From positions 1-64,000 of the forward strand of contig MQRK01249724.1 of assembly GCA_001938485.1 (NCBI GenBank): DNA of 64,000 nucleotides, given 5' to 3'. Below the pieces are notes generated by a model. It was not told where the DNA came from. It saw nothing but the letters and a program-made list of their open reading frames with translations, and did no database searches. The position numbers and the translations under genes are program-made. Position 1 is the first letter of the stretch; every line of letters begins with the position of its first letter. Shown in pieces: positions 1,896 to 42,800 of this stretch. This stretch comes from Girardia tigrina. Taxonomy: Eukaryota.

Positions 1896-2050
1896 TGTCT
1901 GCGATCCTTGCCAGTTCATCCAGGGAGACATTAGTCGTGACTACGGCCGTGAGTAGCTGTAGTTGTGGCGGGAGTGCCGCGGTGAATAGCTGTCTGACGG
2001 TGTCTTCGTCTGTGATATTAATGCCTAGTCTCTGCAGGTTGGTTTGAGGC
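1895..2050 (-). mobile_element. Ty3/gypsy gag-like fragment abutting the hAT BED finger
   Basis: Minus-strand EDTVRQLFTAALPPQLQLLTAVVTTNVSLDELARIAD resembles the gypsy gag LF..LP....SLDELA..AD helix; locally GC-richer. Confidence 0.5.
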
Positions 2051-6396: not shown

Positions 6397-6559
6397 GATA
6401 TAAAAAATAACAGACTGATAAAAAAATAAATTGTCACAGACTCATAAACATCCACCACCAACACAACAAAAAAATATTCAACAATCTGACAACCGATAAT
6501 TAAGAGAAGACGATGACTTGAGAGGTATTACAACATATATTTATTATAAATATATTTAT

Positions 6560-6564
<5 letters not shown>

Positions 6565-6604
<40 letters not shown>
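6565..6604. repeat. (TA)n microsatellite; others at ~23473-23493, 24164-24206, 28741-28781, 31044-31081, 44024-44050
   Basis: Direct observation. Confidence 0.95.
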
Positions 6605-6609
<5 letters not shown>

Positions 6610-7059
6610 CTAATTTTAATTTTTTAAGTCTCTAATTAAATTAAGTTAGACTTTTAGTGAGAAATTATAGTAAAAATTAATAGGAATTAATTTACGATAG
6701 TTTGAAATTCATAAGTTTAAAAAAAATCGATTGAGATTTTAATGAGAAATTAAGGGACACTGCATAAGTAGTAGGACACTACACTCACCATCGAAGTATT
6801 ACTCGTACTCTCCATAATACTGAAATACGTTCGAATTGCTTCCACTATTTAATGATATCCTCAGATTCTTCTATTTACAATGTGATTTCCTGAGGTAGTT
6901 TAGCTAATTATGCAGCATTTTCTAAATTTTATCAAAAATATAAGAAATTGGTAATTTATCCTTATCATTTTTTTCATTGAGTGATGGAATTTCATAAACG
7001 ATATCATTAACAATACCCCAACTGTTGTTTTTTTTATAACTTGTACTGATTAAAATACG

Positions 7060-8091
7060 TTTCTACAGAACTGAGAATATCTCTCCACATTTTTCTTTAA
7101 ATTAGAGTATTCAAACAAATAAAATAAAAACACGAATATTATTTTAAACCTGAATTAGCATTATAAATTTCGATTGTCGTCTTATACTACAGTAGTTCAA
7201 ATTTTTGTCATCTGCTCGTATCTTTTAAAGTATTCGTATGCTTTAGACAACTGTTTTTATAGCATGAAAAATATGCCACTTTCCTTCCAGGTTTTTAATA
7301 GTAAGAAAACGATTTCCATAATCGGCTATCAAGAGTTCACCACAAACATCTTCTTTGTTTATTTTAATCATTGCGGACAACAGAGTTTCTCCATTACTCC
7401 ATAAACGAGGAATATATTCATTCACATTTTGTTCAAATATTTTCAGTTCATCTTTAACACATTTGTCAAGATTTTTTGTATCCATTGTTTATTGGTTCCT
7501 TTCGCCAACTTCGACACTTCCGTGGCGTACTCGTCATTGGTGTTGAAATCTGAATATTTGATAATCTGTAACTTACGATAAGCCTCTCGCGGTCGTAAAC
7601 CAAACATAGCGTTCAATACTCGAAAAACTTTATCGATATTTGCTTGTTGCTTAAACCGACATCTCCATGTATATATTAAGGGCTGATCCACTCAACAAAA
7701 ACTAAAACAACATAGACGCATTCTTTGAGTGCTGCATCGACGTCAACAATACCAATTGCTTCTTCCATAACTCCAAGGATTTATCAACATTGAATTTCTC
7801 AAGATAATCGAGAATCAATTTCACATATGACATCCTGGATAGTTTGTTGTAGAGAGAAAAGTGCAACGAAACAAATGGCTAAAATGTATTGATTAACACA
7901 CATTTCTCCAGAACTGAGAATATCTCTTCACGTTTTTCTTTTAATCAGAATATTCAAACAAATTAAATAAAAACACTAATATTATTTAAACCTGAATTAA
8001 CATTATACTTTCGATTGTCGTCTCATACTACAGTAGTTCAAATTCTTTATCATCTGCTCATGTCTTTTAAAGTATTCTTATGCTTTAGACA
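7060..8091 (-). mobile_element. gag-like relic bracketed by ~190 bp diverged direct repeats (7060-7249 and 7903-8091)
   Basis: The two copies align throughout (cagaactgagaatatctct...tatgctttagaca). Between them, the minus strand gives LLSGSALNIY and VFRVLNAMFGLRPREAYRKLQ, which are gag-like. Confidence 0.55.
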
Positions 8092-10849
8092 TCGTTTCCT
8101 TGAGATAAAATATTCACCAAAAGACTATAGGTGTCGTTACATAACGAGCAAAATCGGGTTTTTTATCCTCCCCCATTTGTAACACATAAAAAGTCTTCAA
8201 TCACCACTCCCCCTACCGTAACGCTTAACACGAATTTTTATTCAAATTTTTTTTAAAATTTAGTAAATATAAAATTATTCTTTATATGGATTCTTTCTCA
8301 TGAATTCTTCTTCATCAAACAAATTTTCACTGTTTGATCAACTTCTTCGTTGTTAATCCATTCGCAAGTTTCAATACTCTATTCCTCAACAGTAACCATA
8401 GTTTTTCCAGGTCATGGTCGGGGGGGGGCATAATGCAATCTTATCTTTACTCCCATCGATATCAAGGATACTATAATTATGATTATTTTTCAGTGTCATT
8501 GAACATTGGCTGAGTAATTGATTGATACATTCAGTTGACTTTTGTCCTTTATTTGTTTCAGGTTTATTAATTTCCCTCATTATGTAATAGAAAATTTCGT
8601 TATGTGATAAGAACAATTTCCTTTTCCGGATATGAATAATCTAATTTTTACCAATCTTAAAGAATTTTCAATCCGATTATTCGTGAGCACAACTTTGATA
8701 TCGACCGGAGTCTTATCGGTCGGTTCCGATCCGAAATGAGATCTTTTATTTTCACGAATATTTTTAATTTCTCGATTACAATTTCAATTCCGCCAAACAT
8801 TTTACACATTTACAATCACGTACCCTTATTTTGTAGAAATTTCCCAATCACTGCACATAAACATTAATCAATTTAATAAATACACATAAATTGTTATAAC
8901 AAATATTTTTTTAATTATATAAAATACAAATACAAAATACATTATATAAAATACAAACAAAGTTTCCGTGATGGAAACTATAGATTCACAAATCGTAACG
9001 AATAGAATCCAAGTTTCATTTTTCGTATTATTACTCGACGCTTTTTCACATTTTTCTTCAATTTATACTTGACGAATTTTTATTTTTTTGGGTTTTTTTT
9101 TACTTCATCATTTCTTTTTCAACAATTTTTCTATTCTTAAAGATCTACGTACTGTAAATTTACTGTATCTGTTGTACTATATCTGTCGATGTTATTTAAG
9201 AAGAACTTGAAAAGCAAATAATATGTTGCAGGTTTTACAAATTCTAATGTTTAATTCTACCTTTTGATTTGGACAGTAAGTATAAATTGGAATATTATGC
9301 AGACTTTGAAAAAGTGAAGTAAATAAGTGAAGTATATTTTCTTTTTCATCTGTCGCAGCATCAACAATTGGTTTATATGATAAATGTATTGGTAAATGTA
9401 TAAATTGATTCGAAAAAAATGTAAATGAGACCATCGAATTGCATTACAACAATGATAATCTGTGCATTTATATGGTTATTATTAGTTAGGTCGATTGAAG
9501 TAATCAGAGAAAGAGAGTGAAAATGGTATCATGTCTTTTATTATTATTGCTCATTTGGAAACTTGAACCGACAAGAAGCGAACTTACATGATCGATGGAT
9601 GATGCGAGAGCGTGCGCAGCGTGACTGCAGCACCATAGTGCGAGTGGGAGATTTTCGGGTCAAAGGGAATAATTTAATTTTAATTTACTCGATTTGAAGT
9701 TTATTTCTCCAATTTTATCAAACGACGGCGAATCGGCGTTCTGGTGGGAAAAAACATCAAATTCAAATTTTTGGGATTGAGATTGAAATTCGATTCAATT
9801 TTAACTTTTCCTCGTAATTGTTCTATTGGTATTGTTCAATTGGTATTCGTTTCGAATAAAATCGTTTTTCCGCCACAAAAACACCGAAATCTCGAAAATC
9901 AAAACAAACATTTGTGCCAGAAAAATTTATTTAATTCGATAAAACAAAAAAAATTAACAATTAAAAATTCGATTAGACAAAAAATAAAAAAATACAATAA
10001 TTCTAATTATTTACAATTTTTCTTTCTTTATCCTTTTTACTTTTCTTTTTCAATTTTTTATCTAAATATCTTCAATTAAACTTTTATTTGCAAAATAATC
10101 GATGTAAATATCGTGATTATCCGTATCCGATCATTCTCTATCGTCCTCGATCTATATCGAGCTGCTGCGTTCTCCAGTTCCGTCCAGTTCTTGTTGGTTT
10201 GACAGCGGCATTCGCTGAAATTGGCATGCCGGTGAGCAGATTGGTAATCGAAGTAAAAACTTTAGCGTCGGCGGATGGCACTCGAGGAATGTAGCATAGG
10301 CTGCCATCAAGCACAATTGTGTTCATACATCGTGGTCTGATGGTGCAAATACACCTGGTCAAAGGATTCATGAACAATTGTCCCATGATGGACAAAATCG
10401 AAATCAATTTCGTGTCGAAATATATCAAGATTTTGAATTGAACACACGCATCATATATTTTTATCATTACATATTTTACCATCACATTACCTTTTATATT
10501 TTTTGTTCAGTAACTTTATTTAATTTATTTAAACAATGCTTTAATTTATTTAGTGTCCAACATATTTTTTATTTTTTCTATTGTTTTTCGGTTCATTTTC
10601 CAACTTCTTTCACTTTCTCTTTATACGTCGTAACTTTTGAATTTATTTTGCGTAACTATAATTCTTTTGAAAAAAGATTTTTTTGTTAGGGAAAAATATT
10701 TTTACTGAAACGGTTGATGTGTTATTTAGTCCATTTTTCGAATCACGATAGTTCTTTTAATTGTCTAAATTCTTTTTTTTCTTTTGTTCAATACCTCTCA
10801 AATTTTGAAAAAAAATCTCAAGTGTCGCTGGATTCTTTAACTGTCACTA

Positions 10850-11218
10850 CAGTGCAGGCTAATTTAGTCGAATAATAATGGAATATGAAGAGGAAAGAAA
10901 AAATCCTAGAAAAAATATTTTTCAGTATTTTGTTTACGTAACTTTTACTCTTAACAAGCTTTGTACACGTCGACACATTCTGGTCAGAATAGTAGCACAA
11001 AAGTTTTTAATAATTTGGGAGTTATGTCACATTCTGACATGCTTGCCAGAGTTCTTCTTTAGACACATTTCATTTGCGAATCTGCTTTTTGAGCAATGGC
11101 CAGGCCGTCCCGATGGGGCTTGCATCTTGGATGTTAGTAGACCAGTCAAGCAAATGAATTCCACAATTGTCCAGATGCTGCATGGTCACATGAGACTTGT
11201 GACAAGAACGTTATCTAA
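10850..11218 (-). mobile_element. Tc1-like transposon 3' end (TIR plus C-terminal catalytic remnant)
   Basis: TA|CAGTGCAGGC terminus at 10850. The minus strand reads DN/SCHKSHVTMQHLDNCGIHLLDWSTNIQDASPIGTAWPLLKKQIRK*NVSKEELWQACQNV, a decayed DNAxxH...WPxxSPDLNPIE region. Confidence 0.8.
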
Positions 11219-20783: not shown

Positions 20784-21608
20784 NNNNNNNNNNNNNNNNN
20801 NNNNNNNNNNNNNNNNNNNNNNNNNNNNNNNNNNNNNNNNNNNNNNNNNNNNNNNNNNNNNNNNNNNNNNNNNNNNNNNNNNNNNNNNNNNNNNNNNNNN
20901 NNNNNNNNNNNNNNNNNNNNNNNNNNNNNNNNNNNNNNNNNNNNNNNNNNNNNNNNNNNNNNNNNNNNNNNNNNNNNNNNNNNNNNNNNNNNNNNNNNNN
21001 NNNNNNNNNNNNNNNNNNNNNNNNNNNNNNNNNNNNNNNNNNNNNNNNNNNNNNNNNNNNNNNNNNNNNNNNNNNNNNNNNNNNNNNNNNNNNNNNNNNN
21101 NNNNNNNNNNNNNNNNNNNNNNNNNNNNNNNNNNNNNNNNNNNNNNNNNNNNNNNNNNNNNNNNNNNNNNNNNNNNNNNNNNNNNNNNNNNNNNNNNNNN
21201 NNNNNNNNNNNNNNNNNNNNNNNNNNNNNNNNNNNNNNNNNNNNNNNNNNNNNNNNNNNNNNNNNNNNNNNNNNNNNNNNNNNNNNNNNNNNNNNNNNNN
21301 NNNNNNNNNNNNNNNNNNNNNNNNNNNNNNNNNNNNNNNNNNNNNNNNNNNNNNNNNNNNNNNNNNNNNNNNNNNNNNNNNNNNNNNNNNNNNNNNNNNN
21401 NNNNNNNNNNNNNNNNNNNNNNNNNNNNNNNNNNNNNNNNNNNNNNNNNNNNNNNNNNNNNNNNNNNNNNNNNNNNNNNNNNNNNNNNNNNNNNNNNNNN
21501 NNNNNNNNNNNNNNNNNNNNNNNNNNNNNNNNNNNNNNNNNNNNNNNNNNNNNNNNNNNNNNNNNNNNNNNNNNNNNNNNNNNNNNNNNNNNNNNNNNNN
21601 NNNNNNNN
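20784..21608. other. Assembly gap (N run); other gaps at 21905-21974, 23494-24160, 59873-60008
   Basis: Runs of N; ORFs spanning them are artefacts. Confidence 0.99.
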
Positions 21609-22336
21609 GGGCGTCGGATTCATCAACACCACATGTTGGTGCATATCATATTTTTTGAACATCCAGTGAACTTTTAAAAAGAATAATAATAATATTAAAT
21701 GCAAAAAAATAATTTAAATTTTTAATTCAAAATTTTTTATATTTTTGTATATATTTTACATGTATAAGCAAAAATTTGGTATAAATACCCTTAAAAGTTT
21801 GTCAAAATTAGAATAAAATATAAAAAGAGAAAGAAAAAACAAATAAAGAAGGAAAAATCGAACCGAAATTTAAACATAAACAAAAGAAGATTCTATATCA
21901 ATTANNNNNNNNNNNNNNNNNNNNNNNNNNNNNNNNNNNNNNNNNNNNNNNNNNNNNNNNNNNNNNNNNNNNNNTCATAATATTTGTTATTTGGTTTCAA
22001 TTACAAATAAAGTTACAATATCAATTATTGAGCTGGGTTCGAGCATCGAACAAGCAACGCAGCCTTCGATTAAAACAACTCAAATTATTATACCCAGCAT
22101 TAAACGTCTAAAACCCAACAATACTGAGTAAATGATACATAAATATACATAATAATTAAGAAGTAAAATGATACCAACATAATACATAAATAGTAAATAA
22201 TTTAATATAAATAAATAAATAAGTTTATACACTGTTGAAGCTAATTATTCCAATGAAAAGAATTGAAAGTTTGTGCTCCATCAGAAACTAATACTTTTTC
22301 TTCAATACGATACATCTCGTTTTTTAAACTTTTTTT

Positions 22337-22421
22337 GGCGTCGTAACGTCCCCGCGTCGAAATGTGCCAGCGTTGAAATGCCCCGGCGTCGAAACGGCTG
22401 GCGTCGAAATGTCCCGTACCC
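22337..22421. repeat. Array of five 15-16 bp GCGTCGAAATGTCC-type units ending in CCCGTACCC; probable complex TIR of a MULE (Phantom-like) element
   Basis: The GC-rich tandem units are seen directly. Family assignment is by resemblance to the repeat-containing TIRs of Mutator-like elements. Confidence 0.55.
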
Positions 22422-22750
22422 GTTTGACTTACTTGCTTCACTTAAACAAATGGAAGATGTGGAAGCAGTCTTTTCTCCACTTCAGCTCTTCAAATCAAAA
22501 GGTTGTAAACAACATGCTTTTAAAATATTGAGAGCCATTTTGTTAGTGGATTCATATAAAACTAATTTGTTTGAGTTACAAATTTCCACATTTTTTACGA
22601 TAAAGAGAAAATAAGAAAACGTGTGAAGTAAAAAATTCTATAGAAATTCAACACACATCACAAATTTTTATGTATTAAAACAAACTTAAAATATTTATAC
22701 AATAATTTCTAAATTACAAAAACGCCATTTATCGGTATAAATTTACTTTT

Positions 22751-22790
22751 GACAACATGTTTCGCCTTGACAGGTATCTTCAGGTCTTCT
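22751..22790 (-). ncRNA. Minimal type I hammerhead ribozyme-like motif (Penelope pLTR type)
   Basis: Minus strand gac-CTGAAGA-tacct gtca aggc-GAAAC-AT-GTT-gtc: CUGANGA/GAAA core, short stem II, palindromic ACATGT stem III and 3 bp stem I. It lies within an inverted repeat (22701-22972). Confidence 0.6.
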
Positions 22791-24160
22791 CTTTGATGTC
22801 TGTAAAGCGATATTTTATACTTGCTTGGTTGTTATGCAAGTGATATTACGTAACTCACGGATTAATTTATTGATGCCAATTAAAATATAAGGTGAAACAT
22901 GTCAAAAATAAATCTTATACCGATAAATGGCGTTTTTGCTATTTATTTCTTTCATTGCCATTAGAAATTATTGAAAATAAACTGGAAGTACTAAAAATAA
23001 TTTCTAAATTGATTTTTTAGCCTCACTTCGAGGATGTTAATAAGTTGTTAAAAATCAAAATGCTAAATAAGTTAATCTAAAATTGGATATCGAATTCTGC
23101 GGGGCAACATTAAGTAAATTAAGTTAAAATTTAAATAGAATTAAAATTTGATGATTAATTATTGGGCCACACAGCTTTTTTTGATTTATTTAGATTTAAC
23201 TGTTCTGATTGCAATAGAAAACATCCATAAATTAGTATGCCAATATTCTTTGTTTAAATCACAATGAATTTGCTGAGCTATCAAAGTATCATCAGCGTGT
23301 TTCTGATACCTTATTTACTCTTCCGGTTTAAGTATTCTGAAAGAAAATTGAAAATTACACAACCATGTAGTGCCAATGGGCAGTTAAATTTTTGAAATAT
23401 CCAGTGAATCATCAACGCAGCAGTTTCTCAGCAGATAGTTTCCAAACTGTCAACATGTTTTCGTTCAGTTATAATATATATATATATATATATNNNNNNN
23501 NNNNNNNNNNNNNNNNNNNNNNNNNNNNNNNNNNNNNNNNNNNNNNNNNNNNNNNNNNNNNNNNNNNNNNNNNNNNNNNNNNNNNNNNNNNNNNNNNNNN
23601 NNNNNNNNNNNNNNNNNNNNNNNNNNNNNNNNNNNNNNNNNNNNNNNNNNNNNNNNNNNNNNNNNNNNNNNNNNNNNNNNNNNNNNNNNNNNNNNNNNNN
23701 NNNNNNNNNNNNNNNNNNNNNNNNNNNNNNNNNNNNNNNNNNNNNNNNNNNNNNNNNNNNNNNNNNNNNNNNNNNNNNNNNNNNNNNNNNNNNNNNNNNN
23801 NNNNNNNNNNNNNNNNNNNNNNNNNNNNNNNNNNNNNNNNNNNNNNNNNNNNNNNNNNNNNNNNNNNNNNNNNNNNNNNNNNNNNNNNNNNNNNNNNNNN
23901 NNNNNNNNNNNNNNNNNNNNNNNNNNNNNNNNNNNNNNNNNNNNNNNNNNNNNNNNNNNNNNNNNNNNNNNNNNNNNNNNNNNNNNNNNNNNNNNNNNNN
24001 NNNNNNNNNNNNNNNNNNNNNNNNNNNNNNNNNNNNNNNNNNNNNNNNNNNNNNNNNNNNNNNNNNNNNNNNNNNNNNNNNNNNNNNNNNNNNNNNNNNN
24101 NNNNNNNNNNNNNNNNNNNNNNNNNNNNNNNNNNNNNNNNNNNNNNNNNNNNNNNNNNNN

Positions 24161-24209
<49 letters not shown>

Positions 24210-25771
24210 TCAGGTGCAAAAGTTTGTGAACGCTTGTTGTCTTTTGCACCCAACTGCAATTATATTGACAAAAGCACACCAAAACACAAAGATTTTATTA
24301 GAACATTATAATAAAGCAAAAATTTATCAAAATTTGTCATAACTGGCACATAAACCACGAAAAACCAGTGCATATTTAGTATTTACTGGTTTAAGAGTAT
24401 AAATCAATGGAAAAAAAGTTAACTATAACTGCTAGTTGGACATTCATTTATGTACAAGCTTTCAAATTTTGACTGAATAAATGTTAAAAGATTTTTTTCG
24501 GAACTAAAATAATTTATTAAATATTTTCAAAATCATAAAAAACAGTACAAATAAATTTCTAATCAAACCGAGATCATAGAGACATTTAAATCTGAATAAA
24601 GATCATGTACAAAAAAATAATTTTTATCACGCGATTATAATTAAATTGTATCCATTGATTAATAAAACTTTTGGGGACCCATAAACAAGGAAACTATCCT
24701 AATTCATTTCACACTTTGAACAGATTTAGCCATTTATTCTTTATCCAGTTCAATATCTCCAACGAACAAAAAGATCATCAAGTAAATTCTTGAACTGTTT
24801 TTCATTTCAGCTATTTCTTATCATAAAGGGCGTTTTCCTATTACTTACATCATCTTATCTATCCAACTGACAATACTTTTACTCTGATATTATATCAACA
24901 ATAATACAATGACTGCTCTGCCCGACTCTCAGGATGCCCAGAGTATCGGATGGAGGTAGTTTCATCGCGCAGCGTTGATATTCCTCGCTCTCAGAGTGCT
25001 GGGCCCATTTTAATTCACAAATTGTCGGAGACATATTAATGAATATTACGGATATGTTTCTTTCACGTCAACAAAAGAATTCAATTTCGAGGTATAATTT
25101 TTATTCAAAAAAATATTAGAAAAATGATGAATTCATTCGCATAATTGTCGATCGAGAAATTTTGATAAACAAAACAGATAATTCGTATATAATTCGATAA
25201 GTCAAATTAGTTGTTCATACAAATCCAATAAGCAAAAAAAGATAGTAGTTTAGTCCCGATCTATCATAAAATAATTGTTCATATGATTTCGAAAATCAAA
25301 ATGAAGCAGATAATAGCTCAAAATATAGATCAAACGAAAAAAATCGATGTTAATTTTTTGTTATTCACCATTCAATCGATCGATGGTTGTGCCTTCATTT
25401 CTAAATTTTAAACATTCAATCGGCTTTTTGGGTGGTCAGTAGATATAATAATACGTGTATAAGCCAAAATTAATTTAAAATAATTTTATTTCAAAAAAAA
25501 TAATTTTTTTTAAAAAAAATAATTTTAATCAAAGGCCACATCAAAGATGCGGCCTCCGAAAAACAATATTCTTCTAATAAAAAAAATAAAATTATTTTTT
25601 TTGAAATAAAATAATTTTTTTAAATTAAATTCAACTTATACACGTATTATTATATCTACTCTAAAATGGAAAAAAAAATTTTATTAAAATTATTTTTTAC
25701 AAAAATATTTTTTAAATTTTATTAAAAATTTTTTTACATAAAAATATTTTTAATTTTATCGGTCAATAAAA

Positions 25772-26645
25772 TTTTTAGCGCAATTTTCATACTGACAATT
25801 GCGATTATTAATTGGTTATCTCTGTGTGGATGGATGGATGTGTGTCCGCAGCTTTAAGTCGTATCTCCTCAACGAAGCAATATCGAGGGCTAGTTCCAAA
25901 AGCAAATATGTTAAGCAAGTTCGGAGGATGATTGTGGGCCAAAAAAAATTCCCGGAATTCCTTCCTGGGTTTCCCGGAAAAGCCAAAAAACCTCGAAAAA
26001 ATGCTGTTTTTGGCCTATATCTCGGCAACCAGACCACTTAGCGACTTGAAACATTTACCAATCGATTCCTACAATAATTTAGAACAATATTGCCGAAGAA
26101 AGTTTTCAAAAATATCCTTTAGTTCGGTCACAAAAAATTAATCATAGTCAAATACTGATATAAACGTTTTAATAATTAATAGACAACTATTAATTTCATA
26201 TGGATTTATTAATTAATTTTAATTAATTTTATATGGGCATTGTTTACTTGATGAAGTTGCTTTTTAGCGCAATTTACGAAAATTAAACCCCTAGATTGAC
26301 CCTCTTATCCTGAATATAAGCTTTTACTTGTGCGGATTATGCGGATTATCGTAATCCGATCAAATTCGGTAATTTTTTCATGGATGTGCTGTCGGATTAT
26401 CCAATATTCGAATTAAAGGCAGCAACAACAAACAATTTTCTAAAATTAATTTTGGTTAAAATTCGATTAAAATCCGCATAATTAAAGTTTCTTCAAGGAT
26501 TCAAATCGATAAGTGAGAATGAAACGAAAAAAAAAATCGTTCGGTCACCAAAAATTAATCATAGTCAAATACTGATATAAATGTTTTAATATTTTGGCAC
26601 CGAATAACATAAGGAAATTGCGCCTAAATTGTCACTAGACTTTTT
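25772..26645 (+). mobile_element. Non-autonomous Helentron (HINE/DINE-1-like) insertion within the left inverted repeat of the mini-element
   Basis: Starts in a T run (tttttAGCGCAATTT) with a nearby inverted copy (caattgcg) and a tgga-type microsatellite. Ends with an inverted AAATTGCGC plus a short tail and T run. A second start lies at 26261, and 26122-26173 repeats at 26540-26590. Confidence 0.55.
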
Positions 26646-26716
26646 ATTAACTTGTTTATAATTGGATCGATAAAAAAGCTTTAAAACGGAAATAAGTGAT
26701 AGAACTCTGTTTTTAT

Positions 26717-27919
26717 CTATTCATTTGAATAAAATCTTCCTAAAATCTTTTCACCATTTAAATCGGACAGTCCATAAGTTATCGGATCAGAGTAATACAC
26801 TTTATAATAAAAATTTCTTTACTAAATTTATGTATATCCTTTTTCAAATTTATTTTTATATCTATAAATTCTTACTCGAGTACCAATTTTGAATTTTGGA
26901 CTTTGTAAATTTGGATTTTGTAAATTTGGAGTGTGTTTTATTAATAAATTAGGATATTCTGATGCTTCTTTTGGAGTTATTCCAATTATCGAATGAATTG
27001 TATTATTATATTCATCTACCAACTTATTTAATAGAGTGATATCCCATTTTTGATTTCCTCGAATTGTAAAATATTTAAATAATTTATTTTTTAGTGTTCT
27101 ATTAAATCTTTCAATAACTACTGCTTTTCCTTCATTATAAGTTGAATATAGAATAATATTATAATCTTTTAAATATTCTTTAAATGATCGATTATAAAAT
27201 TCTGTTCCTTGATCAACCCATAAGTAATTTGGTTTTCTATTATATTTTTCTATTATATTTTCAAATTCTTCAATAATTTGAGTGCCTTTTTTATTTTCTA
27301 ATGGATAAATAAATGTAAATCTTGTACATAAATCAATGACTGTTAAAATATGAATTTGTTTTTGGGAACCTTTTTGTTTATTTCATGCATTTGGTAAGAA
27401 TATTAAATCTGCAGACCAAATATCATCTCTTTTACTTACTTCTACTTTTAAATATTTCTTTGGTTTTTTATATTCATGATGTAATTCATTTGCTAATTTG
27501 AAAGCTTTTGACTGTTTATCTAGTTTAGATTCATCTTGTTCATCTTCGATTGATTCATCTTCAAAGTGAAACTCCGTTTTATCTTCATCCGCTTGCTTAT
27601 ATAAATTTTCAATTGTTTTGGATTTAGCTGTTCTTTCGAGGCCGCCGCCAAATAATAATTTTCCTTTCATAGCTAATTTAATTAAAAATCTGTCTATTCG
27701 TTCTCTTATAGTTGGATTTTGGATATCATTTATTTCATGAATTAGGCGGGTATCATCAATATGTCTATCTTCAAGATTATCTGATCTGTATGCTAAATCA
27801 TGTTTATAACATGCATTATCAACTCTATCAACTGGAATGTTTATATTTGAATTTGAATTTATATTCATATTTTCGGATTTGGAATTTTCTGATTTAATAT
27901 TTTCAGTTTCCATTTTCAT
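26717..27919 (-). pseudogene. Phospholipase A2 (parvovirus VP1u-type) fused to a Polinton-type retroviral-like integrase; one internal TGA, disrupted tail
   Basis: PVDRVDNACYKHDLAY...RHIDDTRLI (PLA2 HD core), then WSADL..NA*NKQKG..ILTVIDLCTRF..LWVDQGTEFYN..KAVVIERFNRTLK..YNNTIHSIIGITP..FKIGTRVRI..FEKGYT, all in one frame. Tail DPITYGLSDLNGEKILGRFYSNE follows stops/frameshifts. Confidence 0.9.
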
Positions 27920-28079
27920 ATTTATAATTTGAAATTGTTACTGATTTATTTTTGGATTGATATTTTTTACATCTGATTTTTTTACATCCGATTTTGGAAC
28001 TGATGAAAATAATTTATTTGAACTGATTATTTTTTTCAACTGATTTTTTTATTGATGCAAAGCTTTAATTTTTAAAAAT

Positions 28080-28625
28080 TTTTAATATAAATTTTTTTTA
28101 ATATAAATTTTTTTACCGATTGGAAAAATGATAGATTAATCGCCAAAAAATTTAAATGTGAAAAAAATTTTAATTATGAGAGATTTATAATGATAGATTT
28201 AATCGCCAAAAAATTTAAATGTGAAAAAATATTTTAATTATGAGAGATTTATAATGATAGATTTAATTTTTTTTTAATGATAGATTAATCGCCAAAAAAT
28301 TTAAATGTGAAAAAAAATTTTAATTATGAGAGATTTATAATGATAGATTTAATCGCCAAAAAATTTAAATGTGAAAAAATATTTTAATTTTTTTTTCGCC
28401 AATTGGCTTATAAATTTTTACATATGAAAATAATTTTTGACTTATAAAAAAATATTTAAAAATAAAATTAGGATTGATAATTCGAACTGATACAATTTTT
28501 TTTAATATAATTTTTTTAATATAAATTTTTTTTAATATAAATTTTTTTACCGATTGGAAAAATTTAATATTAAAATTTTTGGCCTATAAATTTTTTCATA
28601 TGAAAATAATTTTTGGCTTATAAAA
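28080..28625. repeat. Subterminal repeat complex: ~62 bp unit x4 plus duplicated AT-rich blocks
   Basis: atgatagatt(t)aatcgccaaaaaatttaaatgtgaaaaa...ttaattatgagagatttata repeats over 28128-28390; blocks 28084-28128/28520-28561 and 28405-28452/28581-28628 are duplicated. Confidence 0.9.
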
Positions 28626-28736
28626 AAATTTTATTGACCGATAAAATTAAAAAATATTTTATGTAAAAAAATTTTTAATAAAATTTATTTTTCCATTTTA
28701 GAGTAGATATAATAATACGTGTATATGTTAAAATTA

Positions 28737-28785
<49 letters not shown>

Positions 28786-28799
28786 ATATCCAGTACTCT

Positions 28800-29040
28800 T
28801 TTTCCTTGTTTGGAACGCATGAACGTTTTGAACAGTTTAATCAGCATCAAATTTATCTCTAATTTGAGTGATGGTTACTCGCGTTGTTTTTTTTTGAAAT
28901 AATCTCCCCTGGATTGTCTTCGCACTTCGACTGTATTTCCAGTAGTATTTTAAAATAAATTTTCTTTCCTCGAAGGTAGGTCTGGCTGTCATTCTTGTGT
29001 CAGGGACAGAATCTCCAAAAAAGCAATAAGTCATTGGCTA
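28800..29040 (-). mobile_element. Tc1/mariner (rosa/DD41D-like, DUF4817) transposase N-terminal fragment
   Basis: MTARPTFEERKFILKYYWKY...TRVTITQIRDKFDAD*TVQNVH matches the DUF4817 HTH pattern. Confidence 0.75.
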
Positions 29041-29957
29041 TTTGCGTTAATTTAAATGAATACTGTAATAAAAAGTGATGGAAAGTGGCCTTTATTGAGA
29101 TATATTACTACAATAAAAATGACTTTCATCTGTTAATATTTTGACAAAATTAATAAAATCAAAAATAATTATATTGAGCTTTATATGAGTATATTTTTGT
29201 AACGATAATTAAAACAACAATAAAAGACTTATTAAGTTTAAATATGTTGAACTTTACGGGTGTTATGTAAAATCAATTAAAAAGAGTGAAGGTTTTAAAG
29301 TTACTCTTTATTTATTATTTACAATTAATACAAGGTTTATGCAAAGTAAGATTTTAAGTATGAATTTGGCCCCTGGACGATTTTAGTTTTACACTTCGGG
29401 AATCTTCGCGACAATCCGATACTGATTATTTATATGTTTCACGATTACAGTTTACAATGTAGTTATTTAAAAATATAATGGTTTTATTTTAATTATTATT
29501 TTAACAATTATTTTTGATTGTTTTTTTGTTTGAATTTTGTGATCTTTAACGATCATTTATATACTTTGATAAAATAAATAATTAAAATGATCAACTTCCT
29601 TGTTGATCAATTAACTACAAACCGGTAAATTAAACTACACGATCAAACCCTGTTGATCAATTAAATAATTATACGATCAAATTAAATTTTTTTTTGAACT
29701 TTTAAGTTCCTGATCTTATAATTTAATTTCTTTCTTTTTTATTTATCTCCTATTCTTTATTTTATACTTTCATTAAATATAAATTTTAAAATATAACCTA
29801 ACAAATAATACAAGTTAACAGTTATTGATGTGCAACCAAAAATGAGAATAATACAGTTACTTGTTGGATTTTCATATTTTGACGGTAAAGAAAAATAAAC
29901 TCAATTTGATTTTTCCATTAATAATAATGTATTTTTTATTCGTGACTTTTCTTTTTA

Positions 29958-30115
29958 ATTGGGTCAATATGAATTCGGATGATTATCGTTTTTCTTTATA
30001 ATCAGATAAATATGAGTTAGAATAATTAACGTTTTTCTTAATAATTGGATAAATATAAAATCGGATAATTAGAGTTTTTCTTTATAATCGGATAAATATG
30101 AGATCGGATAATTAA
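29958..30115. repeat. 43 bp minisatellite, ~3.6 copies
   Basis: Units start at 29961, 30004, 30047 and 30090 (ggataaatat...ggataatta...gtttttctttataatc). Confidence 0.85.
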
Positions 30116-31039
30116 TATCGAATTTTGATAAATTGTGTTGTAATAGGTTCAGTTGAATAATAATAATTTCAATTAGGAATATGAAAATAAATAGTGGAAA
30201 CAAAAAGTCTACTTTGGCAATATTTAGGCAACTTTTTTTTTGACGATAATTATCATTTTATTTAAATTTTTATTGTATTAAGTTAATAATAGCAAAAATA
30301 ATTAATTGATATTTTTTCCTTTAGATTTCTCTTTTGACTATCTTTCTTTTCTTTATTTATTGTCTTGGGTTTGCGAGATTAAACGCTTCTTTTAATAAAT
30401 TTAAAAAATAAGACAATAACAACAAGATACAAAAATATATGCCAATGCATATGGACTATGAAAGCAAATGTAAACAAACATACTCAAAGATAAATATAGA
30501 TTTACAGATCATAAACGCAAAATATTATATCATAATCCATTAAGTCACCCATCCAACAATTCTTACTATTAAGAAAGAAAGATAAATGAATAACAAGGGT
30601 GTCAGACCATTAGGTTTTGTTTAATAAGAAGTGTAAACCTACAAATACTAACAGAATTCTTTAATACCCTATGTTTATAATTAAACAAATGTGTATAAAT
30701 TTTTGTAGGACACGCAGTATATTTCTGGATAAAATTTGGTACGGCAGAAAATGAGTCTTATAAATCTTTGTATATAAATATGAAGTTACTGACATTAATA
30801 ACTCTGATATTTAACTCGAACTAATACAAAATGGTTTTAACTTTATTGATTAATATTATTGCTAATACCGATTTTATTTGTTTATGTAGCTAAGTTGTCT
30901 TACGTAAAGCACAAGATACTAAATGCTTTGGCGTATATTTTCCGAAGTGCTTTTTATATACTGTTAGTCAAAAATTTTTAATCTTAAAACGAATAACAGA
31001 TTATGATTTATCATTAATTACTACTCCATGAATTTATTC

Positions 31040-31085
<46 letters not shown>

Positions 31086-31529
31086 CCGTGCTAATATTAA
31101 TTGCAAAAAATATTTAATTAAAAATTTGATTTTTTAATTTTAAAGTTTAATTATTTACCATCTTTTTCCTTATATTAGAATTTTTATTCAATATTCAAAG
31201 ATATTGATGGAAACATGGAGCCAAAAATTCTAAATCTTTACTAAGGTGATATTTCGTTTAAAAAGTTTTTTTTCTAATAAGCTACTACCCTCAAACGCGA
31301 TTTTAGAGTATATAACATTGTGATTAAACCATCATTTTCATTTGGTTTCATTATGGTGGTTCAATATTCTTGATCAATTGACGTTTGAATCGAATTTTAA
31401 TGAATTAAGATCACATGATCTTCTTTGTTAATTTTTTATTTTTGAATAATCCAATCGAAATTGTAAATAAAATGTGTTTGTGTGTATGAATTGCGTGTGT
31501 GTGTATAATTGGAAAATTTTAAAAAGAAA

Positions 31530-31717
31530 TTCGACAACCCATGACTATTCTCGAACCATCACTTGGTGTCCTCAACTCGTCGGGGAGACGAACGTGTCTC
31601 TTCCACGTATACGCTTCGGAGTGCCTTCGGGTTCAAACCGTTAACGAGTATGGCCCGGCCGGTAGTTTCAGCGTTCGCGGGGTATGTTTGTTATATTACG
31701 TATTATATTTACACAAT
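31530..31717 (+). mobile_element. LTR-like repeat family A fragment, interrupted by a solo LTR
   Basis: Contains gccttcgggttcaa..acgagta..cccgg and tatttacac, as in 16288-16370. Confidence 0.45.
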
Positions 31718-33225
31718 TGTTACGATCCAACCTTTTACATATTACAAAAGAATAAGGGAATCTAATAGGGAATCTAACTCGACTATTCCCCAGTGTGTTT
31801 AAATAGGCCACATCCGACACGATGACCCACATAAACCATAAAGGCTCAGAGGTACCACGTCAGACGGAGCCGAAGATTCGAACCGCTGCCAGTTGAACTT
31901 ACAGATCATAGGAACTCATGTGAAGACCTTAATGGCCCTATAATATAATAGAATTGTTCAAATACTCTAAATTAATTAATAAAATTAATTACTAGAAAGT
32001 GCAACCGCACTAGTGATTCCGTGAATTTGTAGTAGGAATCCTCAGGTCGAAAATCTATAAACAGATAAATCAGAAAAACAGAAAAAAAACCCCAACGATA
32101 CCTGTGTAAACAGACAGCAACAGACATGCGTCGGAGAATTAACAACGGGAATTGGCGGCGACATCCTGCAAGCAACGTTACAGGTATAATTCCAGTAACC
32201 GACATCTGTTAAAGTCGCAGGGCGTTTGTGTAGCTACCGACGATTGTAAATACCAGGTATAAATGGAAATGGCCTAATGGAGATTTTCTAAAAAGCAAAT
32301 GTAGAAAAAAACCCTTTATTCTTTAATTAACTGATAAGACCAGTCTGATAATTGAGGCACATATGCACTCGCGAATTCTGGTTGCGAGGCAAGGATGAAA
32401 TAAACCGGATGATTGCAATCATGCAATGCATCTCTCATCCTGAAACCAGGCAATTGAGAAATCATGTCAAATAAACCTGCCAAAGTGCGAATCGAAATCA
32501 GATAAACAACATTCACAACAGACATAAACAGTCACTCGCAACTTACTAACATACAGGATACCGCGGCGCATAATTATGATGATTGCAGTCTTGCAATGCA
32601 TCAGTGAGGGATAAAAATTGCGAATGATCGCGAACACGCAATCAACCCCCTTCCATCCTGTCCTTAGATAATTTCAAGGAACAGATATCGATACACGCAC
32701 ATAAGATACCCGAGTGCGTCGGACAATGTATGTGTCCAATCGGGTATAAATACCCGATGTATCTTTGCATGCAACACACAGTTTTTGCATAATTTTACAC
32801 AGCTCTATTCAATTATTACCACACACACACTCATACCCAGAGAAAAATACGATAAACGCACCACAAGCTATTTATCTAATTGCGCACCTAATATTTTCGA
32901 ATTTCTATTAGAAAATTCGAGAAAAATTTATATCTTATGCACGGAACAAAATCACTGAATTATCGCTTAGTTAGCTTTTTTATTTTATTACTCTTATTTA
33001 GATCCTATTTATTGGTAATTTTATCTTATTAGTTCCACAATAGTAACTCTAATACATGGGGATTATGTTTTGTTGTTAACTTTGAATCAATTTATTGAAT
33101 TATGTTCTATTTTATTCGTTTTTACGTTTTGATAAATATTTAAATTGGTTTTAATATATATATATGGAATTATACGTCTTACTTCGTTTTACTGAGCTCT
33201 GTCTATAACTGTTGGATCCTTTACA
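31718..33225 (+). mobile_element. Solo LTR (1508 bp) with 5 bp TSD ACAAT
   Basis: TG...CA termini with imperfect inverted ends (tgttacgatccaac / gttggatcctttaca). ACAAT at 31713-31717 and 33226-33230. TATAAA within the palindrome tcgggtataaatacccga near 32745. Confidence 0.8.
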
Positions 33226-36899: not shown

Positions 36900-39800
36900 T
36901 ACTTATCGTTATCCTCGGATAACAGGAGAACACTCCGAGCTAGAGTCACTCATTGCAGCGTATTACTTTCCCCCCTCGCCGCAATCTGCTGTTGGCGCAT
37001 CTGCCGCGACCGTTGCAGGAACAATAGTCGCTGCATTTGACGTGAGGGGATTCCACTGGCCGGTGTTGTGTTTACTCCATCTCAATGTACAATACTTGAC
37101 ATTGGAGACAATACACATGCGTCTCATATTTTTTGTTGTTGTCTCTGAGAGCTTTAAGGTTTTCAGTATTGTTTCGTTTTCAGTCGGTCAAGAACCCAAG
37201 CAACTCACCACAATGGTACCCAGTCGAACTGTCCATCCCCTGTAGTGCTTTTTATATTTCGTCTCATTGTTTTTTCTTGCTTTGTTTAGAGTTTTAACCG
37301 TGTCTTACGGTGTTTTGACATCGATCAGCCAGAGTTCTTAGTACCCTTATTGTATATTTGTAAGTCAACTCTGCTTTTCGAGTCAGACCACGCGTACTTA
37401 TAGTCTTTATTTATTTGTAAAATTGGTTTTTCCGATGATATTGCTTCCTCAACAATCTGCATCACCGCATTATGTCTGGCAGTAATCATAAGACTATTTC
37501 TTTTACTGAGGCACAAGACATGTATCTGTGTCTCTGTATCTTTGCTGCACGCTCGGCAGAGCGTTTCATTGCGTGGTTTTCTCGGTTTAAAATTAGTTTG
37601 AAGAGTGTTTGTTCGTGAACAGTTCGCCATTCTTCGTTTGTAATGTTTTTACTGTGCATGACACCAACACAATCCTTGTTATTTACAATCGCAACTGCAG
37701 AGATTCCAGCCATCGTTTGTTAGCTCCAATTTGTGAATTTTAGTTTTGCATACAAACGATGAAATTGGGAGGAGATTGAGTGGATGTGAGTTTTATAAAT
37801 CAGGACCGACTCCGTATCAGTGTTGATCTTTAAGCAGATTCCAAGTTCGTTCGTGGTAATTCTTGCTCGCAACCCAATAGAATCGGGATATATAATTGAG
37901 TTGCGAATCTTTATCCATTACGATTTGAATCCGTTCTCTCTGTCGCCTTTATTTAGTCACTCTAGGCAATAGAGAGTGACCAGTCTCTATTTGTTTCGTG
38001 GTACTTATCTAGAGTTTTTACTAAATTAATTAATGTTACGCCCTGAGATGTTGAGTCCAAACAAGTGAGATTTCGAGATACTTGTACTATCGATTGCATT
38101 GCATATTCATCTCTCACTGACACAAGTCCAAGTCTTCTAAGATCCTTATCTTCATGCAAGTATGTGTTGGAGGAGTTCTGGACTGTGCCAAATATTTTTT
38201 ACAATAGTCGTCGGAGTTCGACATCCAGGCCGCCATTAAAAAGTGATTTTTCTTTACGTGATTCCCGTAGTTTGTTAGTTCCCGATTCGGTATATTGTAA
38301 TTTCTAAAATGTGAACCTGGAGTGTATAAATATTTTATACGCCTCCAGTTTTTGCTACGAGAACAACACAGACTTGCTGATTTTTTTCAGATCTTTAACT
38401 GCCGATTTAAACAAGTCTACGGGAGTGTTCTTGGATTTTCGTGTACAGTCAACACCCAAGTAACGGTATACTTCTTCATCTTTAACTATTGGAATGTTAG
38501 TGTGATAAATATTGATGTTCTCAGATGAAGAAGGAACAGATAGATAACCACACTTACTGGGTTTGAACTTCATCGAAGTCCAAGAGACAATCTCCGTTGC
38601 CTTGTCTACCATTGTTTGCAAGTACTCATTCGTTTTTGCAATCAATGCAAGAACCTCGGCGTAAGCAAGACAAGTTATGTGTCCGCTTGTGTTTCTTTGC
38701 CGAATCGTTCATTTTCCTATACTGAATAACAACATCGAAAGTGGGCATCCCGGTCGCACCCCCCGTTTGATTTCTATGTTCTCAGTTATGCAATCATTGT
38801 ATTTGTAAATTGACGCACAATCTGAGTATAAATTACGTAAAATGGAGCACGAAAATTCGTCAACTCCTTTATCTGATAGTATATCCAATATGTGTTCAAT
38901 TGGTATACTGCCAAATGCATCCGTCAAATCTAGGAATGTGGAGATCGGTGTTGTCCATTAATAGGATACACATTACATTATTGTGTTTTGCACACTCGTC
39001 AGATGGACCAGTCCCCTTTTGGAAAGGAGAGATTAGGTTGTTTGTTGTCAACCACTGCTCCATCTGACCGCATAAACATGAAGTGAATAGCGAAACACTC
39101 CATCAATGCAATCGGTCTCCATGACCCGATTTCGTTATGTACCAGTTTTACCTGGTTTAGGGATCATCACTGAGAATTTTGTTCCATTTCTCCGGAATAA
39201 TTCCAATAGTGATGATCTTATTAAACAAGAATGCAGTCAACTGGCAGCCTGGGTCGTAATAATCGATATCTGAATAATTTATGTTGGGAACTCCTGGGCT
39301 GGTTTTCTTTGTTTCCTTCAGAACTGCAACCACCTCTTCTGAAGATATTTGCCTAAATCTAAAGGTTGGTCCTGAGTTAATATTTGGAGATCTGGACCAA
39401 TCTGTTATGGGCGGATCACCAGATTTCGATTCTTCATATTTAGTTAAATTTTCGATAGATAATTCACAATCCACGCTAGTATCATTTAATCTATAGCTTT
39501 TTTTTGTTTATTTTGTATTATTTTTTTTCTATCTTTTCTATTCCTAATTTTATTAAGTTTTTTATCAGCGTCAAGGTTCTTCGTAGTTTTTTTCTAGTTT
39601 TTAAGATATATTCTGTAATCTTATGTTCTAATTTTTCAGAGCTCAAAAGTTTTACTTTCTTCAATTAGTTTTGTTATCTTATCAAACCTTTGAGATCTGT
39701 CCTCCTTTATTTTGATTTGTTTCTCTCTATTTTTTATTTATTTATTTGATTTTATTTTTGTAATATCATAAGTGAGTTTTTTTGCATCAAATTTTGGAGT

Positions 39801-42800
39801 GCAATTGTGATACAACTGTCATATAACGTTTGCAATCCAGTATCCACTCTTTGTAAATTGGTTGGATGTTGAGAAATCAACCACAGGCAGAGTTTTCCAT
39901 TTATTTCCATCAATTATGAAAAAGAGATTAGATTTTTGTTCAGATTGTTTATTGAAATCTCCTGGTCTTTTGTGAGAGCATTCATCATATTGTATATAGT
40001 GCTTGTTTCATTATTTGTATTGAAACCAAGCAATATCCACTGAAACTCTCAGATACACAGTAGACACAAAACTCGATTAATATTTATAAAATCTTCCATT
40101 TCTCCGGAATAATTTCAGTAGTGATGATCTTATTAAACAAGAATGCAGTCAACTGGCAGCCTGGGTCGTAATATGATATGATATTTTTTTCTTTATATAT
40201 GAATCATTGTTCATCGCAATTTCAAAGGTTGATTGCGATGTCAACGTAATCCATTCGTCTTTTGGTGGGAGTAATTTTATCAGATTATTCTTTTGAGAGT
40301 ACTCGAATCTAAGAAGGTTAGCAACAGTCTCTCTTTTTGTACTCTTTTATATTCTGTTGGCTAACTTTTTTAGAATATATTACTGATTTTACCGCTGTGT
40401 CCCTGACATTGTCACCTCCTCCTATTCTTTTATTACTTCTGTTTAAGATGTGATGTCGCAATTTGTGACACCGCATACGGATATCAGGAATATCTATGTC
40501 AAACTGCGGGCAAGCTTTTTTTAGTAATAATATTTTCTAGAAATCCGCAGACGAAAGCACCAAAGTCCTAATTGTTAGTTTGCTGCTCACATTCTGCAAA
40601 TATTAAAGGAAGCTTAACTTTATATAATTTGTTTTTCTTATCCGTGATAACTATTAATTTCAGAAAGTAAAGGAGATACAAGTGCAATGACTGTACAGCA
40701 TACTGCCTGTAATATTTCTGCAAAAGTATTATTTTTGCGTGTTTGATTTGCGTGAGATTTTTCTTTCTTATCCTCTGTATTTTTAAACACTTTCTTTGCC
40801 GTATTGTAGCTAACCCGATGTTTGTGTGTGTCGGCTATAAAATGAAAAGTGTAATTTTTTATTTATTTTTATTTATTTATATTTTTTTGTTCATAAGAAA
40901 GAAGAAGAATAATTGAAAGAAAAAAATTATAAGAAAGTAAAAAAATGATAGAATAAAGAAAATTATATATAATCAAGCCAAATTATTTTTGGCTTAGTAA
41001 TATATATAAATAATCGATAAACTCGATCATAAAATACATTAGTTATAATAAATACAACTTGGACATTCAATTCCGTGGAAAGATTAGAATTCAATTTCGA
41101 CATTTTAACTCGTGAAAAGACAATAACTCTCTTATTGTCGGCCGTATCAAACTACTCGAGGATCTTACGGAAAACAATAATTATAATTGAGTTTTGTTTT
41201 TTCTTACTTAAAGCAGGAATAGACACTTACAGTTGGATTACTATTTTAATTAAAAAATTTTGAAAAAATTGAAAAAAAACACTGAGTTGTTATTCTTTAA
41301 TATATTGAGTTGATAATATCTGACGTTTTAGTTTTGTTCTCTCTTATATTTATTCTACGATAAAAAAACCAGATTAAATTTGAACTGTTTACACTATTAG
41401 TTATTTTTGTAGAGGTAATCTGGTTTTTTTACACTGCCAACCAATGAGTGTTGTTGTAATTAATTATTTTTATTTATTTTTTTATTACGCATGACTCGTT
41501 TTTTCCGTGTTCCGTTTTGCAAAGAATCAGTCCAAGTCATAATTGCCATTAAATAACTTAGTAGCTATATAATCTGGTAGAACCAGAAATTTAGAAGAGA
41601 TGCTGACGTCTTTTAAAAATGTATTGATGTCCTCATCGTCATACCAATATGTTGGGTCGGGTGGCCTGTTTGCATCTTTGATACCTATCAAAGTCATAGG
41701 GCCATCATGTCAATTGGTTTTAAAATTATTTTTATATTTTTTATTTTTAGGTGCAACAAATCGTGAGAATATAATAGAAGCTTCCGATAATATGTCATTG
41801 TCGCTCTCCTCAACAATTGTCTTATCCGCCAAAACCTCTGATGACTGACTGTCGGTCATTCTCAGACTCGCATCCAAGTCGACAGGGTTGGCGAACTTTG
41901 CAACTACAGTTATTCAATTATCGGCCGTTCCCAGACTCGTAATCGGGTCAACATTGTTGCTTACAACAGTTGGCAGTACCATTCCGGTTGTATTGACACG
42001 TGTGTCTTTGTTTTTTTAATGTCTTTGGAGATGATGATAATGTTTTTTTGGAACGACAATAGTTGTTTCTGACACGACAGTAGTTTTGTCGGGCATGATA
42101 ATATTTTTCTCGGGCACTTCTTTAATATCATTCGCTGCAAATAGTGCTTTAATAATTACATAATTGTTTAGTTGGATTTTATGTAATTTTATGATATTTT
42201 TTATCCTATGTTTAAGTTCGACATAAGCATTTCTCAATTTATATGTAGTGTCCAAGTTATTTAAAGCTCTAATTTTACTGATTTTATTCTTTGCAGTTTC
42301 ATTACTATCTTTTTTTAGAGTCGTGTAGTTGAACAGATATTTCCTCACACAACAGTCGAATAGCAATGCCGTAGCCCTTGCAATTTTCGTGGCACCGATC
42401 ACAAATTGAGTTTAGGATATAATCCAATTTCTCAGGAGAAAAAACAGTCGGTGCACTGTGAACCAATAAAATTTCTCTCTAAGTGTCAGGAGCCGGAAGT
42501 CCCAGTTCAAAAGCAGTTCTATATAGCCTATCTATAAACCAGCGTGGAATACTTTTAGTTATATTAATTCCTTCCGCTAATAAATGTAAATTATTAATAG
42601 AAGTAGATAATAATTTATTTCTCTTAAATACTTCTAGGATGTTTGAAGCTTCGTCAGTGATTATTACTTTTTCTGCTGTTACAATAGTCGCTACCGCCGA
42701 TGATTGTGTTTTAATTTGTTCGTGTAAAATTTTAAAAGCATGGTGGAAGTTTTCTCTCGCTAGAGTCTAGCGTAATTAATTATTTCATATACCGTCAAGC
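36900..42800 (-). mobile_element. Degenerate NeSL/R2-superfamily non-LTR retrotransposon (Ulp1-like protease, RT, CCHC, restriction-like endonuclease)
   Basis: Protease: YWYDDEDINTFL (41612-41650) and ECEQQTNN*DFGAFVCGF (40540-40595). RT: KTSPG, WRPIALM, FLDLTDAFGSIP, GVRPGCPLSMLLF, LAYAEVLA, KFKPSKC, YRYLGV. C-terminus: CRACSKDTETQIHVLC, RHNAV, RVDL, IDVKTP. GC-rich 3' UTR at ~36900-37070. Confidence 0.85.
40075..40172. repeat. Internal duplication of RT-region sequence 39183-39262
   Basis: ttccatttctccggaataatt..gtgatgatcttattaaacaagaatgcagtcaactggcagcctgggtcgtaat occurs at both sites (copy spans ~40095-40172). Confidence 0.85.

Follow-up and report, generated by a model that had tools for sequence, protein, structure and literature searches.

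A broken phospholipase-integrase gene between inverted repeats with a left terminal palindrome in Girardia tigrina, probably a remnant of an internally deleted Polinton-like element

A stretch of 64,000 nucleotides from the Girardia tigrina assembly GCA_001938485.1 (contig MQRK01249724.1, positions 1 to 64,000; hereafter the window) contains a compact unit whose single gene joins a phospholipase A2 (PLA2)-like domain to an integrase of the rve family. We think it probable that this unit is a fossil, an internally deleted derivative of a Polinton/Maverick or Polinton-like virus (PLV) of the Polintoviricetes lineage. We favor a deletion derivative because the gene reads as a pseudogene in which half of a domain is missing, the window holds no second copy, a related integrase gene adjoins virion-like genes, and defective copies are the rule for such elements, making up 96% of vertebrate Mavericks (PMC8097293). 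The original prediction for this DNA, made from the sequence alone, had proposed a Polinton-like mini-element and left two options for it, a one-off deletion derivative or a member of a family of minimal integrase-only satellites that rely on a helper. The Polinton origin is upheld by the integrase family, the clade, the end motif, and the repeats, and of the two options we prefer the first. The one unusual feature of the remnant, a 223-bp palindrome at its left end, was absent from that account.

The gene lies on the minus strand and is of the Polinton/PLV kind. Pfam recognizes the integrase (rve, E = 1e-10) and, under the curated cut-off of that family, the phospholipase (Phospholip_A2_4, E = 0.0011), in keeping with the single-gene cargo that had been predicted. 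The catalytic triad of the integrase is kept (D at 27407-27409, D at 27212-27214, and E at 27110-27112); each of these residues is identical in 32 of 32 aligned relatives, as are the H, D, and Y of the PLA2 domain. The reading frame is nevertheless broken at four places, by premature stops at 27383-27385 and 26717-26719 and by changes of frame close to 26830 and 26800, and it is not the intact open reading frame by which a distinct family was to be recognized. Since a relative that is 79% identical (P0174) reads through the C-terminal breaks in one open frame, the lesions there are real, and programmed read-through or frameshifting at these breaks is ruled out. This rejection covers the C-terminal breaks; the stop at 27383 sits in a loop of variable length, outside that comparison. 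With the secondary insert described below set aside, the gene ends 58 bp from the left repeat.

The front half of the PLA2 domain is gone. A profile of 32 relatives matches the gene only from position 69 of 416, and among the 120 relatives listed, 75 matches end exactly at 27835 and none goes beyond. A remnant of the missing half was sought in other frames, and none was found among 3412 frame fragments. The glycine loop, which binds calcium in parvovirus PLA2, has its recognizable pattern in 62 of the 71 relatives that carry HDxxY with room before it (the other nine have variants, judged by eye), and the window has none. Because the missing part includes this loop, the PLA2 domain of the window copy is probably dead, and we read the gene as a pseudogene in which half of a domain that relatives keep has been lost. 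The place of the relatives' PLA2 front half and, in some of them, of a zinc finger is occupied by the low-complexity sequence at 27836..28048.

The unit is bounded by inverted repeats, as predicted (25621-25776 and 28624-28741). These align over 118 paired bases with 112 matches, six mismatches, and one 38-nucleotide gap, so that the two copies are ~95% alike; their local score is 177, far above the best value, 75, that 1000 shuffles by two-base blocks produced. The left repeat reaches ~340 bp if the palindrome is included. The palindrome has a perfect 26-bp outer stem and bulged arms (88 matches and 14 mismatches in the arms), folds at -55.4 kcal/mol (z = -11.7, matched by none of 200 shuffles), and holds at its center a small G+C-rich stem-loop (~25534-25555, z = -3.46). 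The predicted AGTAG terminus starts at 25438; AGTAG faces inward only at this far left position and outward in the paired repeats. The AG...CT ends that a Polinton should show are not present on both sides. At the left the (AGT)2 or (AG)3 motif appears as AGTAGA, and at the right, where the repeat stops in (TA)21 at 28740-28782, it is lost or degenerate. The candidate right tip beyond this run has a score of 21, which 15 of 1504 window slices equal or exceed, and the flanks of 10 other TA runs score 11 to 17. The junction between palindrome arm and inner repeat is common to both ends and the three arm copies have each diverged separately, from which we infer that the arm belonged to the ends of the mobile element. 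The right end, too, would once have held a whole palindrome.

A comparison of the left flank with right boundaries from 28735 to 28809 gave no target-site duplication of 4 to 8 bp, including the 6-bp duplication that the original prediction had named as a mark of a family; the right junction looks secondarily deleted, so this result has little bearing on the original insertion. The motif CTTTTT, which occurs 8 bp before the left end and directly after the putative right tip, was treated as chance. A later deletion at the right junction is suggested by the adjoining fragment of a transposase gene, since the fragment is cut off ~20 bp from the element and its continuation was not found in the window. 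This fragment, which we take to be Tc1/mariner-like, has nine relatives in a full HMMER search and none in a word-indexed search.

From 25438 to ~28741 the unit measures 3,304 bp, and 2,437 bp once the 867-bp Helentron-type insert is subtracted, in agreement with the ~2.4 kb first proposed (Table 1). The subterminal tandem repeats that were part of the same proposal are present as units of 15, 16, 17, 63/64, and 86 bp within 27958-28632. Nothing else of a Polinton was recognized. When the 94 frames of at least 38 amino acids in 21000-33000 were compared with Pfam at E <= 0.01, only rve, PLA2, and the flanking DUF4817 were found, and when 13 proteins from two related loci (L001 and L002) were compared with the window, the integrase was the sole match at E <= 0.1. 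Neither search found a packaging ATPase, protease, or major or minor capsid gene in the unit, and none of the 94 frames matched a DNA polymerase B of the protein-primed type (pPolB), which the unit is too small to house; the predicted lack of such remnants thus holds. Rfam gave 0 matches in 24500-30000. The multiple copies by which a family was to be recognized did not appear within the 64-kb window, where blastn with the unit found, outside it, only AT-rich matches of 31 to 107 bp, and where the terminal 26-mer, with up to six mismatches allowed, occurs only in its three known places. The 63/64-bp subterminal unit (28127-28389) contains TTTTTTGGCGA on the minus strand, which resembles an E2F site and could be a remnant promoter upstream of the gene.

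Table 1. Features of the unit and its right flank, in window coordinates
Position	Strand	Feature
25438..25660		Left terminal palindrome, 223 bp, imperfect, 83% A+T (G+C 0.166), AGTAGA...TCTACT
25661..25776		Left inverted repeat, inner part, with a 37-bp tandem duplication absent from the right copy
25777..26643	+	Secondary insert of the DINE-1/HINE (non-autonomous Helentron) type
26702..27835	-	Gene part homologous to relatives: second half of a parvovirus-type PLA2 (HDxxY kept), linker, and rve integrase, no chromodomain
27836..28048	-	Low-complexity, degenerate 15-17 bp units in the gene frame; ATG at 27917-27919, one stop at 27938-27940
28061..28623		Subterminal repeats of the right end: tandem units of 16, 63/64, and 86 bp, together with duplicated blocks, some like the inner inverted repeat
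28624..28701		Right inverted repeat, inner part
28702..28741		Right palindrome arm, first 40 bp, AGTAGA facing outward; remainder missing
28740..28797		(TA)21 and ~17 bp ending in TACT; weakly suggestive of a degenerate tip of the right palindrome
28819..28992	-	Flank, outside the element: transposase gene, 5' fragment only, with a DUF4817 helix-turn-helix

Relatives of the integrase gene are numerous. At E <= 0.001 there are 798, and the best of the 120 listed are fusions of rve and PLA2 with 40 to 51% identity. None of the 240 proteins listed exceeds 79% identity, in a collection from which host proteins are apparently absent (0 of 3 exact look-ups). For the top relative, the nearest Atlas cluster (score 0.85, taken as a lead only) comprises 184 PLA2/integrase members, and among the 17 of them with a phylum the commonest taxon is Preplasmiviricota. 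A phage collection searched with P0001 gave no match. We built a quick tree of 113 rows, comprising 110 of the 120 listed hits (10 with fewer than 170 amino acids after the anchor motif were dropped) and three further rows. The window integrase and the integrase of L002 fall on the same side of a branch with a Shimodaira-Hasegawa-like approximate likelihood ratio test (SH-aLRT) value of 100, together with other rows that bring this side to 72, none of which has a chromodomain. Several members of this chromodomain-less clade start with a C2H2-type zinc finger. The contigs of the 69 members for which a length is given have a median of 3,139 bp, 7 of 69 being at least 10 kb and the longest 36 kb, and many chromodomain-bearing relatives lie on contigs of 0.1 to 3 Mb; the hosts of the chromodomain-less clade seem poorly assembled or unsampled. 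These contig sizes cannot separate short elements from fragments and were not used as a test for compact relatives.

A scan of GTDB, which holds bacterial and archaeal genomes, gave 124 pattern matches and two confirmed loci, L001 and L002, neither of which has inverted repeats around a lone integrase. Both contigs are probably misbinned eukaryotic or viral DNA. The integrase gene of L002 has neighbors that resemble an adenovirus protease (E = 0.037), protein X (pX; E = 0.0019), and the C terminus of a double-jelly-roll capsid protein (Atlas 0.97). Weak singly, these matches jointly form a virion module, and because the L002 integrase adjoins protease-, pX-, and capsid-like genes, the lineage of the window gene appears to include full virus-type elements. 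The locus itself (VBPR01000135.1, positions 1-2472, from a Thaumarchaeota metagenome-assembled genome [MAG]) is a Polinton/PLV fragment with the integrase, the protease-, pX-, and capsid-end-like genes, and one hydrophobic open reading frame; its presence in an archaeal bin is probably a binning contaminant. L001 (CBDDTI010000389.1, positions 1395-10915, from a bacterial MAG) is a ~10-kb Polinton-like gene block in eukaryote-looking DNA, the last gene of which is a single-frame fusion of an adenovirus-type protease (E = 1.4e-4) with an rve integrase and a chromodomain. We saw no polymerase-like open reading frame and no bounding inverted repeats at this locus, and the capsid, ATPase, and pX labels that we gave to other genes in it are impressions without Pfam hits. 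L001 falls outside the 72-row group. Its integrase stands last in the gene block and points outward, as in the window unit. From a parent arranged in this way, loss of the DNA that separates the integrase gene from the far-end repeats would suffice to produce the window unit.

The window itself displays the ends, the family to which the gene belongs, its lesions, and the insert; which genes were deleted and what the parent did are proposals of ours. The parent would have been a complete element whose long inverted repeats terminated in a palindrome and which encoded a PLA2-rve integrase fusion. Its DDE integrase would have inserted the linear genome into host DNA by its ends, and its PLA2 would have been a virion-borne membrane-entry enzyme, a role proposed for Polinton lipases (PMC4642659; PMC8502044). 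Replication could have been protein primed at the AGTAG repeat, a function that has been assigned to the (AGT)2 motif (PMC8097293), or hairpin primed, as in the model for palindrome-ended elements (10.64898/2026.07.28.741278); the present copy cannot distinguish the two. The stretch from the integrase gene to the far-end repeats would then have lost its polymerase or helicase, packaging, and capsid genes, through one deletion or a few, either in the present copy or in a near ancestor. Decay would have followed in the form of stops, frame changes, and the Helentron-type insertion, the right palindrome would have collapsed to leave (TA)n, and the target duplication would have been lost when the right junction suffered a deletion. 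As it stands, the copy makes no full-length integrase and is unable to move alone.

Several observations weigh against this fossil reading. The 71 codons upstream of the junction hold one stop in the gene frame and 10 and 3 in the other frames, an openness as extreme as in 2% of 3000 shuffles for a region that was picked after looking. A nearly open 5' replacement with an ATG is what one would expect had PLA2 been given up and the integrase retained, and the loss of PLA2 looks to have been in frame. A transposon-like derivative would be expected to shed its entry enzyme in this way and preserve the integrase frame. Chance alone predicts 0.8 to 2.2 stops in 334 codons at 1.5 to 4% divergence per copy; the gene may therefore still have been open at the insertion of the compact copy, and its decay does not date the deletion. 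The tree is a quick one in which the window row sits on a long branch (0.76). Genomic context comes from a single clade member, L002, which is 46% identical to the window gene, whose neighbors give matches that are each weak (Pfam below the curated cut-offs and Atlas recognition below threshold), and whose contig is cut before any PLA2 part. Finally, no full-length element sharing the ends of the window unit was seen.

Non-autonomous Polintons exist in Repbase, and the unit could belong to a once-mobile family of compact non-autonomous elements in which one deletion occurred and the 2.4-kb form was then copied via its ends by a helper Polinton or virus, possibly being inserted by its own integrase after shedding a PLA2 activity needed only for entry. 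Both ends are kept and ~95% alike, the catalytic D, D, and E are intact, the stop count suits a gene that decayed once inserted, and the gene frame through the 5' replacement is almost open. Reduced elements of this kind also have parallels, in that Polintons lacking pPolB are reported still to spread in butterflies (10.1101/2025.02.07.637071) and fragments retaining repeats and target duplications in Halocafeteria have been suggested to be helper dependent (10.64898/2026.07.28.741278). We nonetheless judge such a family to be unlikely, if worth serious attention, given the single copy in 64 kb, the lack of any relative above 79% among the 240 listed proteins of a collection apparently without the host genome, the target duplication that was not found, and, as regards an integrase-only satellite, the closure of the integrase frame in the window copy by its two stops and two frame changes. 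A 2.4-kb unit is also far under the size of intact vertebrate Mavericks (12.7-24.6 kb; PMC8097293), which would make packaging doubtful. A more far-reaching form of the idea, which strikes us as distinctly unlikely, is a ~2.4-kb family that arose from a Polinton-like virus by combining an integrase whose PLA2 part was inactivated in frame with long AT-rich fold-back ends like the hairpin telomeres of parvoviruses and poxviruses. Hairpin primed by host or helper enzymes, without recourse to a protein-primed polymerase, and self-inserting, it would represent a virus becoming a one-gene transposon.

One DDE gene between inverted repeats is also the layout of Ginger elements, and the size is in their range (~2.6-7 kb for Ginger1; PMC2836005), as would suit an autonomous cut-and-paste transposon derived from a Polinton, the rve integrase of which excises and reinserts alone as in Ginger/Tdd. 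We give this very little credence: the ends are AGTAGA and not TGTNR, no H2C2, YPYY, or GPY/F region was visible by eye in the translation, the close relatives listed are all Polinton-type fusions, the surviving half of an enzyme of virions speaks for a viral parent, and neither an excision footprint nor a second copy was seen. It is equally improbable, to our minds, that the unit is an assembly artefact or local rearrangement in which a long repetitive element had its two ends collapsed together or fold-back copying created the left palindrome in place. The assembly does have four N gaps, one of them with (TA)n runs on both sides, the right end of the element lies at a (TA)n run, and the transposase fragment to its right breaks off without continuation. 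The interior of the unit, however, has no gap, 14 of the 102 positions paired between the palindrome arms are mismatched, the three arm copies carry private differences unlike those of a fresh collapse or fold-back, and the same arm-to-inner-repeat junction occurs at both ends.

The insert that interrupts the unit resembles the DINE-1/HINE elements (PMC4067079) in its subterminal inverted repeats (at 25778 and 26615), in a short inverted repeat beside the 5' one (at 25797), in a GGAT microsatellite near 25830, and in the T runs at both ends, which correspond to the T-run target of those elements. A possible difference is its 3' stem-loop, which is not above chance (z = 0.22, compared with -3.07 for the 5' stem-loop). 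The 5' motif recurs at 26267, from which the insert may be composite or nested. Beyond the opposite repeat of the unit, neither another copy of the insert nor an empty site was found in the window.

Elsewhere in the window, a decayed non-long-terminal-repeat retrotransposon lies on the minus strand at 37300-42800 and contains reverse transcriptase fragments (Pfam RVT_1); its R2/NeSL-like look is an impression. A Tc1/mariner-like transposase in two frames (HTH_32, weak DDE_3) occupies 62255-63220 on the minus strand, adjoined by a pair of inverted repeats at 62025-62158 and 63392-63525 with 95.5% identity. Two minus-strand sequences are possibly pseudogenes, a RIO1 kinase fragment at 47916-48314 (E = 3e-13) that runs into unrelated sequence and, at 52651-52923, a look-alike of the start of a DEAD-box helicase without a Pfam hit. 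Tandem arrays outside the element are found at 29947-30115 (43/86 bp), 22336-22416 (16/32 bp), and 59366-59459 (7/14 bp). The assortment of transposon fragments is suggestive of an invertebrate host.

As a deletion-derived fossil, which is how we prefer to read it, the unit carries little weight by itself, broken Polintons outnumbering intact ones. Its ends, in turn, preserve a terminal palindrome of 223 bp from a lineage that has PLA2-integrase fusions and offer a cheap probe for the parent element. With this probe one can ask if palindromic ends accompany replication without pPolB, as proposed for protist virophages (10.64898/2026.07.28.741278). Should the compact form turn out to exist in several copies, it would show how a virus was pared down to a mobile unit with an integrase alone, and Polinton excision and replication would become testable on a tiny substrate.

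The unit derives from the Polinton/PLV kind. Like Polintons/Mavericks such as the adintoviruses (PMC8502044), it combines an rve integrase bearing D, D, and E with a parvovirus-type PLA2 domain; its inverted repeats are within the 46 to 1,447 bp of vertebrate Mavericks (PMC8097293), and its end AGTAGA has five of the six bases of (AGT)2. It fails as an autonomous Polinton in its polymerase, virion genes, size, and target duplication, as it has no pPolB, ATPase, protease, or capsid genes and no 6-bp target duplication and measures 2.4 kb in contrast to 12.7 to 24.6 kb (PMC8097293); the long terminal palindrome is a further difference from these elements. The account of PLA2X given for adintoviruses (PMC8502044) presents it as a gene whose C-terminal domain is pX-like, without mention of a fusion to an integrase, whereas the PLA2 of the window is fused to an integrase. 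The literature that we consulted (titles, abstract openings, and passages, from few subscription journals and without supplements) describes neither an integrase-only mini-Polinton family nor a PLA2-integrase fusion, although gene maps beyond this literature may show the fusion, which is common in sequence databases. Ginger1 and Ginger2/Tdd (PMC2836005) share with the unit a single integrase-like gene between inverted repeats and a similar size. Unlike the unit, they have TGTNR ends, target duplications of 4 to 5 bp, and an H2C2 zinc finger, none of which was seen in it, and they lack PLA2. No H2C2 zinc finger was seen before the DDE core in the translation or the alignment and there was no such Pfam match; the unit, with its AGTAGA ends, is not a Ginger element.

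Protease and phospholipase content, as seen in L002 and in the PLA2 fusion, recalls the Gossevirus group and group 2 Maverick-Polintons (10.64898/2026.06.19.733378). These groups are defined by capsid and ATPase genes, and because the window unit has neither, it is not assignable to them. Terminal palindromes and remnants that retain repeats both have a precedent in the 2026 protist preprint on Halocafeteria seosinensis (10.64898/2026.07.28.741278). The palindrome elements of that genome are unlike the window unit in being complete, ~24 kb long, and equipped with target duplications, and the palindrome illustrated is 52 nucleotides long, compared with 223 here; we liken them to the unit by their ends. 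What the endogenous virophages and PLVs of Halocafeteria share with the window unit is an inverted repeat that bears a palindrome on its outer side, tied there to particular rve integrases, and their genome likewise contains fragments that retain the repeats without most of the core genes.

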